From a virus (taxonomy: Duplodnaviria > Caudoviricetes), in the IMG/VR virus record IMGVR_UViG_3300025503_000166, positions 1 to 33,024 of that record: a DNA stretch of 33,024 bases; one strand, given 5' to 3'. This document shows positions 3,870-23,564 of this stretch, piece by piece; within the stretch, counting starts at the first letter, position 1, and every line of letters begins with the position of its first letter. The translations under genes and the position numbers were made by a program. The notes beneath the pieces were generated by a model. The model saw only the letters and a list, made by a program, of their open reading frames with translations. It was not told the DNA's origin and did not search any database.

Positions 3870-4430
3870 ATGACGCTGCCCTTCCTGCCCTTCCAAGCAA
3901 AGCCCGGCGATATCATGGGCCTGAGGGGATCCGGTTGGATTTCAGACCAAATCTGCGAACTGACCCGGCCGTCATCTCCGATCATCTGGGAGGGCGTCGC
4001 GATCGAATGGAGTCACGTCGGCATAGTTACCGCGGTGGCGCCCTTCGTCCAGGTGACCGAGGCGCTGACAAAGGTGCGGACGCGCCCCATCGATGTTTCG
4101 ATTGCAGAGGCTGAGTTCGCGTGGATCGCCCAGTTGGGGGCTCTGACGGATCAGCAGCGCGCAATGCTCGCGCGCAAGGCGCTGAGTTTCTCGGCGGACG
4201 ATTACGGGTACGCGGATATCGGGCTGCAGGCGCTGGATAGCGTGACGCGGTCGCGCTGGTTCACCCAGCATTTTGCAGAGCGTCGATTCCCTATCTGCTC
4301 AATGCTGGACGCGCTGGACTACGACTCGATCGGCATCCGGTTGGGCATCAGCGCGAGCAGCGCCACTCCCAACGACCTTGCGCGCTATGTCACCACCCAC
4401 GCGGGCTGGGCGGTCCAGGCGGTGAAGTGA
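3870..4430 (+). CDS. Permuted papain-like (NlpC/P60, YaeF/YiiX-type) hydrolase
   Basis: KPGDI, WSHVGIV (His), DYGY and ICS (Cys), with His before Cys. Confidence 0.8.
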   Translation: MTLPFLPFQAKPGDIMGLRGSGWISDQICELTRPSSPIIWEGVAIEWSHVGIVTAVAPFVQVTEALTKVRTRPIDVSIAEAEFAWIAQLGALTDQQRAMLARKALSFSADDYGYADIGLQALDSVTRSRWFTQHFAERRFPICSMLDALDYDSIGIRLGISASSATPNDLARYVTTHAGWAVQAVK

Positions 4431-8215: not shown

Positions 8216-9986
8216 CGCATATGGGCGTCCCGTCGATACCCAGGCGCTGCGCGGCGAGCAGGCCGCGCCGACCGTCGCGGGCATCCGCAATATTTATTCT
8301 GTCGTGCACCCGAGTCAGAACCTCTCGCCAGAGCGGTTGGTCGCGGTGTTGCGTACGGCGGAGATGGGCGATCCGTGGCTGTACCTCGAGCTGGCCGAGG
8401 ACATGGAAGAGAAGGACCTCCATTACCTGAGCGTGCTCTCTACGCGCAAGCACGCGGTGGCCCAGCTCGAGTTGAGCGTGCAGGCGGCCTCCGAGGATCC
8501 CGCCGATATCGCGGACGCGGATTTCGTGCGCGAGGCGCTGTTGGAGGGTCCGCTGGACCTGCGCACTGCTCTTTTCGACATCCTCGATGCGATCGGCAAG
8601 GGCTTCAGCGTAACTGAAATCAGCTGGGACACGGGAGGCCGCGAATGGATCCCCGTGCAACTTACCTGGCGCGATCCGCGCTGGTTCATGTTCGACTGGG
8701 TATCGGGTGAGCAATTGCTCGTACGCACGCTCTCGAGCGACGGCACGCCACTTCCCGCGGCGACGGCCAACAGCACTTCGAGCGGCGGATCGCACCTGGC
8801 GTCGATCGCGCCGAACCTCTCGATGACGCGCACTGGGGCGGAGATCGGCATACAACCGGCGACCGCCCCGCTGCGACCATTCAAGTTCATCACGCATCTG
8901 GGACGCGCGAAATCGGGGCTCCCGATTCGCGGGGGCATCGCAAGATTGGCGGCCTGGGCGTACCTGTTCAAGACCTATGTGCTCAAGGACTGGGTCGCGT
9001 TCGGCGAGACTTACGGGCAGCCCCTGCGCGTGGGCAAGTACGGGCCGGGGGCCAGCGAGCAGGACAAGCAGGCGCTGCTCCAGGCGGTGGCCAGTATCGG
9101 CGCCGACGCGACCGCGATAATTCCGCAGAGCATGGTGATCGAGTTCATCGAAGCGAAGGTCACCGGCTCGATCGATCTATATGAGAAACTGTGCGATTGG
9201 CTGGACCGGCAGACCAGCAAGGGCGTGCTCGGGCAGACGCTGACCACCGAATTGCCCAAGGGGGGCGGCTCGCGGGCGGCGGCCGAGGTGCATGACGCCG
9301 TGCGGCGCGATATCGCGGCCGACGACGCCCAGCGGCTGTGCGGGTCGCTCAATCGCGACCTGGTAAAGCCGCTGATCGATCTGAATCGCGGGCCGCGCGC
9401 CCGTTACCCCAAAATCATGCTGGGATTCCCCAGCGATGAAGATCTGGAGACCCTGAGCGCCGCGATTACACCATTTATCGACAGGGGTCTGCCGGTCGAG
9501 CAACGCGAAGTGCTCAAGAAATTTGGCTTGTCGCTGCCAGCGGCGGGCGCGCCGATTCTGCATCCGGCGGAGAAAATCCAGGGTCAGGATGCGGGCAGCG
9601 CGCCACAACCAGCATCTGAGGTCGGCGATATCGGCGCGGCTCCATTCACCGAGGTGACCGCGGCGCGCAAGGGCAAGGGCAACGGCAAGAGCGATACGCC
9701 GGCGCTGGACGCGATCGATCGGTTCTGCGCGCGGTTGCGGGACGAGTCCGATCCAGCGATGGCGCCGATTATCCGGCCGCTGCTGGCCGAGATGCGCCAG
9801 GCGCGCGGTTATGAGGATCTCAAGCGCCGGATGGTGCGGGCGGTGGCGGCGATGGATCCGGGCAAGTTTGAGGAGCTGATGGCGCGGGCGGGATTCGCGC
9901 TGAACGTCGCCGGGAATCTGGGCCTCAGCGTCGCGCAGGACGCGCCGCGCCGGCGCCGGGCAACTAGGATAGCGGGCCGGGAATAA
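8202..9986 (+). CDS. Portal protein (DUF935, Mu gp29-like)
   Basis: LYDAYGRP, DMEEKDLHY, DAIGKGFSV, YGQPLRVGKY, SKGVLGQTLTT. Confidence 0.95.
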   Translation: MPLYDAYGRPVDTQALRGEQAAPTVAGIRNIYSVVHPSQNLSPERLVAVLRTAEMGDPWLYLELAEDMEEKDLHYLSVLSTRKHAVAQLELSVQAASEDPADIADADFVREALLEGPLDLRTALFDILDAIGKGFSVTEISWDTGGREWIPVQLTWRDPRWFMFDWVSGEQLLVRTLSSDGTPLPAATANSTSSGGSHLASIAPNLSMTRTGAEIGIQPATAPLRPFKFITHLGRAKSGLPIRGGIARLAAWAYLFKTYVLKDWVAFGETYGQPLRVGKYGPGASEQDKQALLQAVASIGADATAIIPQSMVIEFIEAKVTGSIDLYEKLCDWLDRQTSKGVLGQTLTTELPKGGGSRAAAEVHDAVRRDIAADDAQRLCGSLNRDLVKPLIDLNRGPRARYPKIMLGFPSDEDLETLSAAITPFIDRGLPVEQREVLKKFGLSLPAAGAPILHPAEKIQGQDAGSAPQPASEVGDIGAAPFTEVTAARKGKGNGKSDTPALDAIDRFCARLRDESDPAMAPIIRPLLAEMRQARGYEDLKRRMVRAVAAMDPGKFEELMARAGFALNVAGNLGLSVAQDAPRRRRATRIAGRE

Positions 9987-10049
9987 AAACGGCCGTACGG
10001 GCCATGAACGAAGCGCTAGCGCTTTGTTTGGATGACGGGAGGATGGGTG

Positions 10050-10292
10050 ATGAGGAAATGCAGCGGGTGCGATGCTCAGTTCGAGCCGAAACGCAAAGAT
10101 CAGAAGTATCACAGCACGCCGTGCCGCCGGGACCATCAGAACCAGGTCGCCAGGCGCGCACTGGCGCGCACCACGAAGGCGCGCGCGCGGCGCCTATCCT
10201 TCGAGCCGGTGGTCAAGCGATGCGCGGTACGCGGATGTCGGGCGATCTTTCTGCCGGCGATCGACGCGACCGGGGCCGACGCAGCGCTCTGA
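10050..10292 (+). CDS. Small Cys-rich zinc-finger-like protein (frame stays open to 10484)
   Basis: CSGC...FEPKRKDQKYHSTPCR and CAVRGC; GGGAGG RBS. Confidence 0.55.
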   Translation: MRKCSGCDAQFEPKRKDQKYHSTPCRRDHQNQVARRALARTTKARARRLSFEPVVKRCAVRGCRAIFLPAIDATGADAAL

Positions 10293-10480
10293 TTCAGCCA
10301 TCGGCGGTCCGAAGATGCGCGTGCGCTTTTCGCCCTATCTAATGATGGGACGAGAAATGCGTCGGCCGTCGCGCAATTGAATCCGCGCCAGGAGATAGAG
10401 CTGGGGCGAATCCGGGACGTGCTGCGCGGGGCCTGCGAAATATGGCACGGCGCGCCCTGCGAACATCAGGGGTGCGCCTC

Positions 10481-10987
10481 GTGAGGACGCGGGTCGAGCC
10501 ACTGACCGAGGAGTGGCTGAGATCAGTCGGATTCAAGTGGCATCAACTGGAGCGGCAGCCCGAAAAGCATTGGCTGTTGTGGCTCGGCGACTGCCTCGGA
10601 GGGGGTCTGACGAGCTATGAGGACCTGGGCGTCGAGGTCGCGTACGGCTCCTATGATCGCGCGACCAGGACTCGCGATCATTGGTTCTGTTGGCTGCGGG
10701 GCGACTCAGCCGGCCTGTACCACCGGTTCATCCATGTCCGCGCCCTGTACTATCGCGAGGAGCTGATCGACCTGGTCGAGGGGCTCACCGGCCACGTGTG
10801 GGACCCGACCAATCATCTATATGGCAGTATCCGGACCGCGCGCGCCGCGGAGCATATCCGGCGCGAGGACGAGCGCCTGGATCGGCAAATGATGCGCGAG
10901 CGCCCCTGGGCGCAGATCGAAAGAGACGAGTCGCGCGGACGCGCGCTGCCCGAGCATAAGGAAGCCGTCGAAGGAAAAAGCAAATGA
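10481..10987 (+). CDS. Trp-rich hypothetical protein
   Basis: Track ORF 10442..10987; GTG 10481 is a GTGA-coupled start; phage-like codon usage. Confidence 0.7.
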   Translation: MRTRVEPLTEEWLRSVGFKWHQLERQPEKHWLLWLGDCLGGGLTSYEDLGVEVAYGSYDRATRTRDHWFCWLRGDSAGLYHRFIHVRALYYREELIDLVEGLTGHVWDPTNHLYGSIRTARAAEHIRREDERLDRQMMRERPWAQIERDESRGRALPEHKEAVEGKSK

Positions 10988-11400
10988 GCGAGCCGAAGCT
11001 GATCGATGTCGGAGGCGGCCTGCATATAGTAGATGACGCCGAGGCCCGAAACGGTCCCGAAACGGAACCGTTTGGACCGCGCCGGGATCCTGCGAGCGAG
11101 GAGCTGCGCGAGATCGGCGCCGAGCTGCGCAAGCCGGTAACGGCGCAGCGGCGGGACTATCCCAACCTGATGCTGGCGATCGGCTTGGAGGCGCTGTACC
11201 GGCAGACGCAGGAACATATCGCGCGGCAGGGTCATATTCTCTCGCGCAAGGAGTTCATGGCGCTGGGCTTCTCGCTCCTGGTGCCCGCCCCCACCCTCCT
11301 GCAGCTCATGCAGCGGGGGCTGCCGTTCATGCTGGTGCAGCAGCCGCAACCGCCGGGTCAGGTCCCGCGCAATCCGCTGAGTATCATCAAGCGTGGCTGA
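10984..11400 (+). CDS. Hypothetical protein
   Basis: ATGA coupling upstream; overlaps the MuF start. Confidence 0.7.
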   Translation: MSEPKLIDVGGGLHIVDDAEARNGPETEPFGPRRDPASEELREIGAELRKPVTAQRRDYPNLMLAIGLEALYRQTQEHIARQGHILSRKEFMALGFSLLVPAPTLLQLMQRGLPFMLVQQPQPPGQVPRNPLSIIKRG

Positions 11401-12739
11401 TTATCGCGGCAATAACGCGGCGGACTTCGACTTCGCGGCGTTGCCGCCGGAAGAGGCGGTCGAGTTTTTCCGCAAGAAGGGCTACCAGGTCGGTTTCGAT
11501 TGGCGCGACGTCTGGCAGCAGGAGCATCAGCGGGCCTTCACGGTCGCCAAGGCGATGACGGTCGATCTCCTGCAGGATATCCGCGCGGTGGTCGACAAGG
11601 CGATCGCCGAGGGGATCGACTTCCAGGATTTCCGCGAGAATCTGGAGCCGATCCTGCGTGCCCGCGGATGGTGGGGGCGCCAGGAGATGGTCGATCCGCT
11701 GACCGGAAAGAAGCGGGACGTGCAGCTCGGATCCGCGCGCCGATTGCAGATCATCTATGACACGAACCTGCGCACGAGCCTCGCGGCCGGCCATTGGCAG
11801 CAGATCCAGCGTACCAAGAAAGACCTACCGTACCTGCGCTACGTCGACCCGGATCCGAATCCGCGGCCGCAACATCTGGATTGGAGCGGCACGATCCTGC
11901 CGGTCGATGATCCCTGGTGGTCGGCGCACTATCCGCCCAACGGCTACAACTGCAAGTGCTACGCCGACGCGCTCTCCGACGATGACCTGGAGCGCTACGG
12001 CTTTGAGCGCAGCCCGGCCGCGCCGCCTTCGCCGACGCACACGTACACCAATCCGCGCACGGGGCAGAGCTACGAGGTGCCTGATGGGGTAGCGCCGGAG
12101 TTCGCATACAATGTGGGCGAGACGGGAATCGTCGAGCCGGCGGAGCAGATGCTGGAAGCGAAGCTCGCCGCCGCAGACCCGGATATCGCGCATGCGGTGC
12201 GAGAGATGGTCGCGCCGAGCGCGGCGCTGCCCGATGATGCGATCGCGCGCAAGCTGGCGCGGCGTCCCGAAGCTCACCGGATCATGCAACGCGTACCGGC
12301 GCGCGAATGGCGCGCGGCGTGGGATTACTGCACCGACTCCGACCCTATCAACGACCCGTGGCGGCGGCATGGAGAGCTAACACCGCAGGCGAAGGACCTG
12401 CTCGCGCTGATGGGCAAGTTGCCGCGATTCAGCGGAGTTACCTGGCGCGGGGAAGAGCGCGCCTTGACGCCGGGCTTGATCGCAGATCTCACACCGGGAA
12501 GCGCTGTGACGCCGCAGGCCTTCTGGAGCACCAGCCGGAGCCGCTATCGGGGTCGCCGGTTTGCCGGGGCCGAGGGCATCCTCTACGAACTGCACGGGAT
12601 CCGCGGGCGCCAGATAGAAGCACTGTCGCCGTTCCCGCGGCAGAAGGAGGTCCTCTTTGACCCGTGGGCTCGCTTCGAGGTAATATCAGCTAATCGCGAG
12701 GGGAAAATCCTCCATGTCGTTATCAAAGAAAAGCCCTGA
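11393..12739 (+). CDS. MuF (gp30) minor head protein fused to a C-terminal ADP-ribosyltransferase domain
   Basis: MuF motifs RAFTVAK, RRLQIYDTN-like RLQIIYDTN, PPNGYNCKC; ART motifs TWRG, WSTS, SPFPRQKEVLF. Confidence 0.92.
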   Translation: MADYRGNNAADFDFAALPPEEAVEFFRKKGYQVGFDWRDVWQQEHQRAFTVAKAMTVDLLQDIRAVVDKAIAEGIDFQDFRENLEPILRARGWWGRQEMVDPLTGKKRDVQLGSARRLQIIYDTNLRTSLAAGHWQQIQRTKKDLPYLRYVDPDPNPRPQHLDWSGTILPVDDPWWSAHYPPNGYNCKCYADALSDDDLERYGFERSPAAPPSPTHTYTNPRTGQSYEVPDGVAPEFAYNVGETGIVEPAEQMLEAKLAAADPDIAHAVREMVAPSAALPDDAIARKLARRPEAHRIMQRVPAREWRAAWDYCTDSDPINDPWRRHGELTPQAKDLLALMGKLPRFSGVTWRGEERALTPGLIADLTPGSAVTPQAFWSTSRSRYRGRRFAGAEGILYELHGIRGRQIEALSPFPRQKEVLFDPWARFEVISANREGKILHVVIKEKP

Positions 12740-20269: not shown

Positions 20270-20794
20270 ATGCCCGACATTCAAGTGAACTCGCTCAATA
20301 ATTGCGCGGTGTACATCGATGGGATCGGCTATATCGGTCGCGCCAGCGAGGTCGATGTCGCCCATCCCAAACAGGTGATGACCGATTACAAGGGCGCCGG
20401 CATGGTCGGCAAACTCGAGCTGTGGGCCGGGGTGGACAAGCTCGAGTCGCGCATCAAGTGGGCGAGTTTCGACACCACGGCATTGCTCGCGGCCAGCGAC
20501 TTCACCGTCGCGCATATGTTCCAGGTACGCGGCAACTTGCAGCAATACAACTCGCTGGGCCTGGCGGCCGAATTGCCCGTGGTCTACCTGATGACCGGAG
20601 TCTTCAAGGACGGCGGCAAGGCCGCGTTCAAGCACCAGGAACAAGTCGAGACCGAATCGACGATCAGCGTCTATCACACCGAGCTGTGGGTGGCCGGCAT
20701 CCAGATCTTCTTGTACGACGTGTACTCCAACACCTACATGGTCGGCGGTATCGACAAGCTTGCCGCGATGAAAGCCAACCTCGGCCTGATCTAA
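20270..20794 (+). CDS. Tail tube protein (P2 FII-like)
   Basis: VYIDG.GYIG, GMVGKLEL..GVDKLE, VGGIDKL; follows the sheath. Confidence 0.92.
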   Translation: MPDIQVNSLNNCAVYIDGIGYIGRASEVDVAHPKQVMTDYKGAGMVGKLELWAGVDKLESRIKWASFDTTALLAASDFTVAHMFQVRGNLQQYNSLGLAAELPVVYLMTGVFKDGGKAAFKHQEQVETESTISVYHTELWVAGIQIFLYDVYSNTYMVGGIDKLAAMKANLGLI

Positions 20795-20826
20795 CTCGGG
20801 CCGCGAGAAGGGAGCGTAATCCGTAA

Positions 20827-21204
20827 ATGGCCGAGCAACTGACGGTGAATGGAGTGCCAGTCCAGCGCGCGGCGCAATGGACTGCCGACCGCACTATCAC
20901 GCTGCCGAGCGGCGCGAGCGCCGAGATCCGCAAGGGCAAAGGCCGCGACCTGCGGCGCGTGATGACGCGCCTGGCCGCGGCCGCGGGCAGAGAGGAGGAC
21001 AGCGCCGGCGCCGACGCGGTCTTTGGGTTGATCGCCGAGCTGGTGCGCGTCGAAGGTGCCCCGATCATGCTCGAGGACCTGGAGGAGATGGAGCTGGCGG
21101 ACGTGTTCATGCTCCAGAATGAGGTAGTTGGCCGAAATTTTTCGCCTGCTCGGCGCCCGGTCTCCTCGCCCTCGTCGAGCGCGGGTTCTCCCTCGCGGAA
21201 CTGA
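20827..21204 (+). CDS. Tail assembly chaperone (gpE-like)
   Basis: ITLPSG, RKGKGRDL, EDLEEMELAD; lies between tube and tape measure. Confidence 0.82.
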   Translation: MAEQLTVNGVPVQRAAQWTADRTITLPSGASAEIRKGKGRDLRRVMTRLAAAAGREEDSAGADAVFGLIAELVRVEGAPIMLEDLEEMELADVFMLQNEVVGRNFSPARRPVSSPSSSAGSPSRN

Positions 21205-21302
21205 GCGAGATGGAGCTTGAGGAGATCGCGATGTGGCTGCGCACGTCGATGGCGGCCGAGGCCGCCAAGGCGCGCGCCATTCGCGACGCCGGGCGCGAGT
21301 AA
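21135..21302 (+). other. -1 programmed frameshift site and gpE'-like extension
   Basis: Slippery A AAT TTT (21135-21141); -1 frame reads FACSAPGLLALVERGFSLAELSEMELEEIAMWLR... to TAA 21302. Confidence 0.82.
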
Positions 21303-21333
21303 CGCAAACGCAACACGGGCGGACTAATTGATT

Positions 21334-21645
21334 ATGACCAGAGTGTTTGTCGGCAATCTTTCCTACGACGCAGACGAGCATGATCTGCGCGGGCTGTTCA
21401 GCGCGGCCGGCGCGCTGGAGGGGATCGAGATCGTGCGCGATCGCCAGACTGGCAATTCACGCGGTTTCGGCTTCGTCTCCTTCATGATGTCGAGCGACGC
21501 CGAGCGGGCGGTCGAGGACCTCAATGGCCAGGATCTCAAGGGGCGCCCACTGCGCTTGGAGTTGGCCCGGGCCCGCGAGCCGCTGCGCGAGCGCCATGAT
21601 CGCAGGGTGCATGAGACGGCGACCGCGACGCGCCGCCGCTGGTAA
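21334..21645 (+). CDS. RRM-domain RNA-binding protein
   Basis: RNP2 VFVGNL, RNP1 RGFGFVSF, LNGQDLKGRPLRLELA, Arg-rich tail. Start ATG 21334 or TTG 21328. Confidence 0.93.
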   Translation: MTRVFVGNLSYDADEHDLRGLFSAAGALEGIEIVRDRQTGNSRGFGFVSFMMSSDAERAVEDLNGQDLKGRPLRLELARAREPLRERHDRRVHETATATRRRW

Positions 21646-21668
21646 GGAGCAACTGAGGGTATCGCGGG

Positions 21669-23564
21669 ATGTTCGGGAACCTGCTCAATTTCGCGTTGAC
21701 GATCAAGGCGATCGACCAAGCCAGCCGCGTCATCAAGGGCGTGCAGGAGCACGTCGAGAACCTGAACGCGTCCGTCAAGGCGACGGGCGCGATGCGGGAA
21801 TACGCGCAGAATCTGGCGATGGTGGGAGCGGGATTCGGCGCGGCCGGCGCCGCCGGCCTGTACGCGATCAAGGAAGCGATCGAGCCGTTGATGGAATTGG
21901 ACGCCGCGCAGCGCCATCTGCTGACCGCGCTGCCCGCCGGCGCCGAAGGGATGCGCCAGATGCGCGCGGCGACCGAAGCGGCCGCGGCTGCGTCGATCAA
22001 GTTCAACGTCTCGCAGGAAGATTACCTGCAAAATGTCTATCTCGGCGTGTCCGCCGGGCTCTCATTCAATGCCGCGATCGCCAATGCCACCGACTCGATA
22101 GAAGTGGCGAAGGGCACGATGGGGGACGCGGCCGAAACCGGGCGCATCCTCGGTCAAGTGTACAACGATTTCGGCGACACGACGCGCGCGGCTGGGCCAC
22201 AGGTGCAGCATTTCGCGGACGTGGTGGCGTATGCGGTGCGGCAGTTCGCGTTCAAGAATGTGGGCGAGTTCAACGAGGCGCTGAAGGAATCGATCGGCGC
22301 CGCAAAAGCCGCGGGGCTCTCTTTCGAGGAGACCACCGCGCTGGTCGCCGGTTTCCAAAAAGTGGGAATTACCGGCAGCGAGGCCGGTAGCGCGATCCAG
22401 GAGATGATGCAGGCTATCGCGCGAGGCGGATTCGAGAAATTGGGTGTGCCGCTTGAGCGCTTTAACAACGGCGCGATCGACGTTATCGGCACGCTGACCA
22501 ACTTCAAGCGCGCCATGGGCGACGGGGTCATCACGGCGGAGCAATTTCAGCGCGTGTCCAAGGCGCTGGGCGTGCGCGGCTCGCGGTTGCTCACCCTGGA
22601 CCCGGCGCAGCTCGCGGCGATGCATGATCTGCTGACGAGCAGCACGGTAGTGGGGGCTGCCGCCCAGGGCGCCCAGATTGTGAGCGCCGGCGCTATTGAA
22701 CAGCTCGGGCGACTCAGCCAGGCGTGGACGCAACTGCGCGAGGCTTTTGGGCAGCCGATCTTCAATTCGATGGGGCCGTGGATCGCGGACCTGGTGGGCG
22801 CGGTCAAGTGGGTGATCCAGCTCGCGAAGGCGCATCCCGAGGTGGTCAAGATGGTTGCGCTGTTCACCGCGTTCGCCTCGGTGGCGGCGGTGCTGGTGGG
22901 GGGACTGTTGGTGGTGGGCGCTGCACTCGCCGCCGCCGCGAGCTTCGGGGTAGCACTCGGCCCAGCGATAGCGACAATCGCCACCATCGTGGTCGGGATC
23001 GGCGCGATCGGCACGGCGGCCGTGATGGTCGGCCCGCGGCTTTATCGCGCGTTCGAGGCCCAGATGAAACGGCTGGAGGCGCTGGGCTTCGGCAGCGGGA
23101 CGGCGTTCGTCCTCGCGATCGCCCACGGAATTACTGCCGTGGGCGCCAAGGTATATGACGCTCTCGCGTCGGTGTTGCACGATGCGCGCAAACTGTTGCC
23201 ATTTTCGCCAGCGAAGGAAGGCCCGCTGCGCGATCTCCATCGGGTGCGTATCGTGCAGACGATCGCAGAGCAGATTCGGCCCGCGCCGGCGGTCCTCGCG
23301 ATGCGGCGGGTGGCCGCGGCCGTCGCTATCGCGGCGGTCCCGACCTTCGCCGCTGCTCCCACGTTCGCGCTGGGTACGGCGCCTCGCGCTGGCTCAGTCG
23401 CGGCCGCGGGCGGCGCAACGATGAACATTACGGTCAACGCGCCAGTGACTATTCATCACGCGGGCAGCGAGCAGGACCTGGGCCGGGCGCTGGAACAGCA
23501 TCGGCGCAAGATCGCTCGCCTGGTCGCGGACGAAGTGGCCACGCGCAATCGGACGAGGTTCTAA
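21669..23564 (+). CDS. Tail tape measure protein
   Basis: TIKAIDQAS, GITGSEAGSA, hydrophobic Ala/Gly stretch, LLPFSPAKEGPLRDL. Confidence 0.92.
   Translation: MFGNLLNFALTIKAIDQASRVIKGVQEHVENLNASVKATGAMREYAQNLAMVGAGFGAAGAAGLYAIKEAIEPLMELDAAQRHLLTALPAGAEGMRQMRAATEAAAAASIKFNVSQEDYLQNVYLGVSAGLSFNAAIANATDSIEVAKGTMGDAAETGRILGQVYNDFGDTTRAAGPQVQHFADVVAYAVRQFAFKNVGEFNEALKESIGAAKAAGLSFEETTALVAGFQKVGITGSEAGSAIQEMMQAIARGGFEKLGVPLERFNNGAIDVIGTLTNFKRAMGDGVITAEQFQRVSKALGVRGSRLLTLDPAQLAAMHDLLTSSTVVGAAAQGAQIVSAGAIEQLGRLSQAWTQLREAFGQPIFNSMGPWIADLVGAVKWVIQLAKAHPEVVKMVALFTAFASVAAVLVGGLLVVGAALAAAASFGVALGPAIATIATIVVGIGAIGTAAVMVGPRLYRAFEAQMKRLEALGFGSGTAFVLAIAHGITAVGAKVYDALASVLHDARKLLPFSPAKEGPLRDLHRVRIVQTIAEQIRPAPAVLAMRRVAAAVAIAAVPTFAAAPTFALGTAPRAGSVAAAGGATMNITVNAPVTIHHAGSEQDLGRALEQHRRKIARLVADEVATRNRTRF

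Follow-up and report, generated by a model that had tools for sequence, protein, structure and literature searches.

Bacterial proteins built around a single RNA recognition motif (RRM) are described as binding mRNA and ribosomes (PMC12232666) and as global post-transcriptional factors (PMC13370968). An RRM-fold protein encoded by a phage is also known, the RNA-binding translational repressor RegA of T4 (PMC7824862). Proteins can also stimulate ribosomal frameshifting, as described for arteriviruses, where trans-activation by nsp1beta/PCBP requires a conserved downstream motif (PMC5009743).

The tail operon examined here has the gene order of BcepMu and phiE255 and of the lambda/P2 G-GT cassette: sheath, tube, chaperone with a −1 frameshift, tape measure, gpU. 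In BcepMu no gene separates the frameshift product from the tape measure, whereas here a gene for a single-RRM protein, hereafter P0001, occupies this slot. HK97 gene 15 presumably also sits between chaperone and tape measure. Like the morons HK97 gp15 and JBD26 Tab/anti-Tab, the RRM gene is an accessory gene in a morphogenesis operon and is patchy among relatives. It differs from them in lacking a promoter or terminator consensus and a GC anomaly, and in its long, strongly constrained retention. Unlike a late-operon moron that encodes a membrane protein, it specifies a soluble RNA-binding fold.

P0001 resembles cyanobacterial Rbp1–3 and Bacteroides RbpA–C (PF00076) in having one RRM of ~80 aa with canonical RNP1 and RNP2 motifs and a short tail, and its neighbors among predicted models in the Atlas are bacterial RRM clusters (feature score 0.94, TM 0.85). 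Unlike these bacterial proteins, it is encoded in a phage virion operon and its tail is Arg-rich and Gly-free. It shares with T4 RegA a phage-encoded RRM fold and a proposed post-transcriptional role, but it is a cellular-type RRM with canonical RNP1/RNP2 and its gene lies in the tail operon of a temperate phage. P0001 is most likely an accessory RNA-binding gene product of a known family in a new setting. A literature search, with most subscription journals outside its coverage, found no publication describing an RRM gene within the tail or virion operon of a phage and none on the Binataceae gene cluster described below.

An RRM gene in the tail operon of a Mu-like prophage

The window (the whole stretch of DNA analyzed, 33,024 nt) is the last part of a provirus record, G001, of 43,860 nt that is 90% complete. 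The left arm of this record carries MuA, MuB, Gam and a late activator (phrog_310, phrog_296, phrog_491 and phrog_836), and the window holds a Mu-type head module (Mu gp27, portal, F, I, T and gp36) and a P2-type contractile tail. The genes that define Mu-like transposable prophages are all present, and together with the P2-type tail they indicate that G001 is an intact-looking member of this group. Among cultured phages, nucleotide matches are confined to the BcepMu and phiE255 types and to the tube gene. Judging from relatives only, the host is probably a Binatota-like bacterium.

Two further observations concern the same prophage. The MuF minor head protein (11393–12739) has a C-terminal extension resembling the ADP-ribosyltransferase family PF01129 (E 1.5e-4, under the cut-off), and is possibly a fusion of the MuF-toxin type. 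Three unannotated open reading frames (10442–10987, 1955–2575 and 3870–4430) have homologs with 34–51% identity in the second intact prophage, G142, introduced below.

Table 1. Positions in the window of the RRM gene, the frameshift cassette and adjoining tail genes
Feature	Position	Strand	Basis or remark
Tail tube gene (P2 FII type)	20270..20794	+	PF04985, E 6e-33
Tail assembly chaperone (G-type), 125 aa	20827..21204	+	phrog_21320, E 9e-14
GAGGT, Shine–Dalgarno-like word, predicted cis stimulator	21121..21125	+	9 nt ahead of slippery site
Slippery heptamer A AAT TTT, predicted −1 shift	21135..21141	+	AAATTT(T/C) in nearly all close relatives
−1 frame extension (GT part), 53 codons, TAA stop 21302	21141..21302	+	fusion product 158 aa
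AACGCAAACGCAAC repeat	21301..21314	+	not conserved, probably incidental
Single-RRM RNA-binding protein gene (P0001, 103 aa)	21334..21645	+	ATG start; PF00076, RNP2 + RNP1, Arg-rich Gly-free tail
RNP2 motif VFVGNL, residues 4–9 of P0001	21343..21360	+	
RNP1 motif RGFGFVSF, residues 43–50 of P0001	21460..21483	+	
Full-length tape measure gene, 631 aa	21669..23564	+	PF10145, E 2.1e-25; phrog_28

The initial annotation described an intact RRM with an Arg-rich tail, inserted between the −1 frameshift product and the tape measure, and each of these points is borne out. P0001 aligns with all 70 positions of the PF00076 (RRM_1) model (1–70; E 2.5e-23), scoring 82.2 bits against a curated cut-off of 20.7. 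Both RNP motifs are present and the stacking aromatics F5, F45 and F47 are intact. The protein matches 98 solved RRM sequences at E ≤ 1e-10, and comparison of its Atlas model with RRM clusters (TM 0.79–0.85, with predicted models on both sides) is consistent with an RRM fold. The C-terminal tail of 23 aa is 35% Arg/Lys and 0% Gly, unlike the tails of Gly-rich-tail bacterial RRM chaperones. Canonical RNP1 and RNP2 motifs occur in all 60 distinct RRMs found in this slot. A PHROG search with P0001 matched no family, RegA included.

The RRM gene begins 31 nt past the GT stop and ends 23 nt ahead of the tape measure, on the same strand. Its GC content is 0.67 and its GC3 of 0.825 falls among those of nine neighbors (0.81–0.88), so that the foreign base composition of a classical moron is not seen. 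A scan of 20700–21800 for sigma-70 promoter and terminator consensus gave 0 matches, with a consensus that may miss the signals of this taxon. Between 20000 and 24000 no Rfam family scored above its cut-off, and there was one chance-level match.

The tail chaperone frameshift cassette

The chaperone occupies the same position as BcepMu gp42/43, which are annotated as G/T frameshift genes. The heptamer near its end and the conserved open −1 frame are the features expected of a G/GT frameshift cassette. Relatives of the chaperone retain N-F at the shift site, and homologous −1 extensions with complete ends are 49–72 aa long. In bacterial cases of −1 frameshifting, a Shine–Dalgarno (SD)-like word can serve as stimulator, and by analogy the GAGGT word may stimulate the predicted shift. 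Among loci that have the heptamer, an SD-like word lies 5–18 nt upstream of it in 61 of 68 with the RRM and in 21 of 23 without the RRM. Folding 3′ of the shift site was not significant in windows of 78–81 nt.

The A/C-rich repeat that the initial annotation noted ahead of the RRM gene does exist: this 14-nt sequence, AACGCAAACGCAAC, overlaps the TAA stop of the −1 extension. It is not conserved. Six of the 329 fetched loci contain it, each a copy of the window's own contig, and tandem 6-mers occur at 26 positions of the window. We rejected it as a binding site since it is present in self copies only. A different word, resembling GACTA(A/T), occurs once at 21322–21328. Similar words, often in two copies, are found in RRM leaders of the Binatus clade and are missing in most other lineages. 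The motif GA[CG]TA[AT], defined post hoc, lies upstream of the RRM in 4 of 13 dereplicated lineages versus 0.9 expected, and it is not enriched within the window. As an autoregulatory site it is a weak lead.

Distribution of the RRM gene among phages

RRM genes are rare in phages generally. Besides the missing PHROG family, only 3 of 50,697 INPHARED records match P0001, and the two that were inspected (L388 and L389) look bacterial chromosomal, with zur and mggB, and topA, rep, rpmG and rpmB. IMG/VR holds 198 stretches with an RRM relative. Among the best 80 of these 198, the RRM lies behind a homolog of the window's chaperone in 53 (including the window itself), and in the other 27 no homolog of a structural gene lies nearby. 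Several of those 27 loci (among L098–L171) are on contigs of 150–470 kb.

A search from the chaperone side gave 57 viral and 34 genomic loci, or 86 once the window itself and four loci cut by contig ends were removed. In 67 of these 86 loci, which are redundant, the next gene past the −1 product is an RRM gene of the same orientation. By comparison, tape-measure similarity led to 88 more distant loci, the window excluded, and none of them had an RRM; by a count made by eye, tube and tape measure are both present in 58. Locus searches that started from one sequence, either P0001 or the tube, returned only the window or unrelated loci. The slot arrangement is lineage-specific, and is neither general nor random in position.

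Resident copies in Binataceae and a second intact prophage

The chaperone profile matched 103 of 151 sampled genomes of the Binataceae, the family of genome G023. The profile of the slot RRM matched 61 of the 151 at E ≤ 1e-33, always downstream on the chaperone's contig and, by a by-eye comparison, within about 0.5 kb of the chaperone in 60 of the 61. These tallies include unpublished genomes (7 for the chaperone profile and 3 for the slot-RRM profile), on which the conclusions do not depend. Of a further 40 chaperone loci, 9 carry an RRM, seven of them as divergent copies in new genomes and two as second copies; 23 are RRM-less operons running from tube to gpU, and 8 lacked tail context or were cut. 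The slot RRM is carried by at least 68 of the 103 Binataceae-family genomes with this chaperone, mostly in chromosome-resident clusters whose tape measure has shrunk.

In seven genomes that were mapped widely, the cluster has head and tail genes and is often interrupted by host genes, with flanks common to four. The genes seen in the resident cluster (L172–L191, L332 and L334) are a repressor, Mor, a GH108 lysin, TerS/TerL, portal, protease, capsid and a contractile tail. MuA and PF10145 were unmatched in 5 of 5 Binataceae genomes searched, the MuA query having no positive control, and neck and MuF were undetected in the stretches of resident cluster examined. This Mu-derived cluster is a candidate for a tamed particle, GTA-like or tailocin-like.

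Median dN/dS values over 33 loci, whose pairs are not independent and some of which are near-duplicates, are 0.041 for the tube, 0.058 for the RRM, 0.17 for the chaperone and 0.52 for the short tape measure. The slot RRM is under strong purifying selection. Resident tape measures are short, and their C-terminus is conserved. The example at L105:5315–6421 and its homologs are about 260–500 aa, often basic and of low complexity, and still open; conservation is restricted to ~60 aa at the C-terminus, with dN/dS of 0.59 in the N-terminal part and 0.24 in the C-terminal part.

One of the two second copies belongs to a second intact Mu-like prophage (G142:C22), which carries MuA, MuB, Gam, Mor, MuF and neck genes, has the order chaperone, RRM, long tape measure, and has a tube that is sister to that of the window (91/86). 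Because this prophage is intact, the slot arrangement exists in free phages and not in tamed copies only. In the tube tree, the tubes of both intact prophages (L001 and L377) fall within a clade of resident copies supported at 100/100. This placement could reflect more than one taming event, renewed capture by phages or long-branch attraction.

RNA sequence data were also searched. The Binataceae RRM region gave only small shares in the run search, and contigs from four RNA runs on L064 cover the RRM, the tube and parts of the baseplate. These contigs are uninformative on expression, since contigs cannot rank genes.

Origin of the RRM gene

The initial annotation took the gene for a captured host RNA chaperone and proposed a phylogeny against host RRMs. 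P0001 is a cellular-type RRM, and its GC3, like that of its neighbors, indicates that the capture is old. In the trees P0001 falls outside the Binataceae housekeeping RRMs, which form supported clades of their own. Such paralogs are numerous, with 2–7 RRMs per genome (slot copy included) in 29 of 30 Binataceae-type genomes searched. Tails with more than 30% Gly are found in 25 of 34 sampled host paralogs and are absent from the slot RRMs.

The only close relative of P0001 is P0002 (73%), for which no viral contig was found. In RRM trees built on 82 columns, P0001 joined the Binataceae slot RRMs in two of five (SH-aLRT 92; 98/80) and stood apart in three, and an AU test of a single clade containing both (p 0.40) neither rejects nor demonstrates it. 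The profile scores of P0001 are 99.7 bits for slot RRMs, 86.6 bits for host RRMs and 99.9 bits for other viral RRMs. Orthology with the Binataceae slot RRMs is suggested by synteny, that is, by the shared slot in a homologous operon, where identity is about 58% for tube and sheath and about 70% for baseplate J. It is possible that the slot copy was replaced by a different RRM.

Loss of the RRM gene and uncoupling from its neighbors

On a tube tree of 44 rows, the presence of the RRM requires 7–8 changes. This patchiness among relatives is a classical property of morons. Given these changes and its absence from 23 related operons, the RRM is not essential. In several RRM-less lineages, the slot is taken by one small antisense ORF or a pair of them, with hydrophobic stretches, and by eye these ORFs fall into two recurring families (L345, L351, L352, L360, L363, L366, L369, L372, L374 and L375).

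The repeated losses bear on the proposal that the protein tunes frameshifting, either as an activator or as a damper, by binding just 3′ of the slippery site and setting the G:GT ratio. Several observations invite this idea. The RRM usually lies directly behind the GT stop, and in one operon (G050) its ATG follows that stop without a gap; frameshifting is stimulated by proteins in arteriviruses, as noted above; and Rbp3 is described as binding ribosomes and RNA near stop codons (PMC12232666). Median downstream folding is also weaker in loci with the RRM than in those without it (−10.8 vs. −21.5 kcal/mol). However, this difference stems from one oversampled clade, and both hairpin strengths occur in each class, with strong hairpins in RRM-bearing lineages (L055, L339 and L357) and weak ones in RRM-less lineages (L046, L345 and L369). 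The SD-like words are likewise common to both classes. The slippery sequence A/GAATTTT is kept in 19 of 23 RRM-less operons, and no downstream motif exclusive to RRM-bearing loci was seen by eye. Thus, unlike in arteriviruses, the shift site does not co-vary with the protein and no dedicated motif tracks it, even though a slot RRM could act near the site. RRM genes also occur in head operons. We judge a dedicated role in frameshift control to be quite unlikely.

Rearranged operons offer a second view. In G022, the chaperone and tape measure have moved to a position between capsid and gp36, and the RRM still stands behind the tube. In G024 the RRM abuts gpU, and a short tape measure sits before TerL. 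The notion that the tape measure is absent, with RNA serving as ruler, was rejected for G024 once this tape measure was found; the gap is shared by four viral records, but these are fragments, 19–31% complete. Relocation alone does not decide against frameshift control, because the protein would act in trans, and the repeated absence of the RRM from operons that retain the shift site is the stronger argument.

Relocation also bears on a partnership with the tape measure, whether the RRM would act in cis where translation of the tape measure begins or serve as an assembly factor for the protein, including the Arg-rich disordered Binataceae version. The RRM is usually directly upstream of the tape measure, and the resident tape measures behind a slot RRM that were scored are basic and lack hydrophobic segments, whereas many RRM-less ones keep such segments. 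Basic tape measures also occur without the RRM, however, in L051, L053, L088, L350, L355 and L362. The RRM stays in place where the tape measure moves, which speaks against the suggested role in tape-measure translation. It precedes a tape measure of normal length in the window and a long one in G142, and its RNA-stacking aromatics are intact. A tape-measure partner is accordingly a very unlikely identity for the slot RRM.

RRM genes are found in other positions as well. An intact Mu-like prophage with MuA, MuB and Gam (G012:C281; L236:9887–10219 with L338) has an HK97-like head module, and its RRM gene lies in the head operon between portal and prohead protease. Two integrase-bearing elements have RRM genes just past the terminase large-subunit gene (L232, ~9750–10070; L233, 9741–10383), as a single copy and as a tandem pair of degenerate ones.

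Possible functions of the RRM protein

We assign a probability of about one half to the reading that the slot RRM is a trans-acting RNA-binding helper of the late operon and not a dedicated frameshift switch. The gene is likely co-transcribed with the virion genes and its product would be made together with their proteins. The RNP1/RNP2 surface and basic tail could then bind single-stranded late mRNA in trans and, if bacterial single-RRM proteins are a guide, bound long late phage mRNA would be kept stable and translatable. Same-strand tight embedding, the use of one slot both in the G142 prophage and in most Binataceae copies, strong constraint, the recurrence of RRM genes at other late-gene positions and independence from where chaperone and tape measure lie make a late-mRNA role the best reading among those that the initial annotation offered, and a long-resident helper gene the best description of the slot RRM. 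Besides the absence of the gene from 23 related operons, two points count on the other side. A generic RNA chaperone may be redundant, since 29 of 30 sampled host-type genomes have 2–7 RRMs, and the RRM-less slots with small antisense ORFs resemble a cargo site.

The latter observation fits a moron that benefits the host, in which the prophage would supply an extra RNA chaperone for cold or stress and the tail slot would be a tolerant insertion site. The patchy presence of the RRM agrees with this, as does the finding that different small genes occupy the slot in L049 and in lineages that lack the RRM. The RRM is also retained under strong constraint in chromosome-resident copies. Bacteroides RRM-1 proteins are described as cold-induced (PMC13370968), and a moron in a late operon has been documented in the case of Tab (PMC10884400). 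Against this, every slot copy found is on the same strand and tightly spaced, to the point of a direct stop–start junction in G050. The base composition of the RRM gene is ameliorated, and the Gly-rich tail of most host paralogs is lacking. The hosts already have several RRM paralogs, and the absence of a promoter or terminator consensus around the RRM is a further point, a weak one for this taxon. A host-benefit moron is possible, if doubtful.

The gene could also act in counter-defense, as a decoy or by shielding late phage RNA against host RNases or defense systems that sense RNA, a role that the initial annotation had raised. Placement in a late operon times counter-defense genes, as described for anti-Tab (PMC10884400), and the distribution of the RRM is patchy. 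In resident copies, however, dN/dS is very low and the gene has long been retained by vertical descent, which is unlike an arms-race gene, and we regard this explanation as highly improbable.

A broader scenario would have Binatota phages repeatedly installing an RRM as a morphogenesis regulator that sets tail stoichiometry, including G:GT, in trans. The RRM would have survived the taming of a Mu-like ancestor into a headed particle that is family-wide and lacks a transposase, as the tape measure turned into a short Arg-rich disordered protein. We think this scenario unlikely.

Implications

For a cluster present in about two thirds of the Binataceae genomes sampled, the window supplies the counterpart from an intact phage. 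Operons with and without the RRM, and with long and short tape measures, form a natural comparison for the role of the RRM and for the taming of Mu-like phages. A conserved RRM in a virion operon suggests that phage morphogenesis has a post-transcriptional layer that has gone unstudied.
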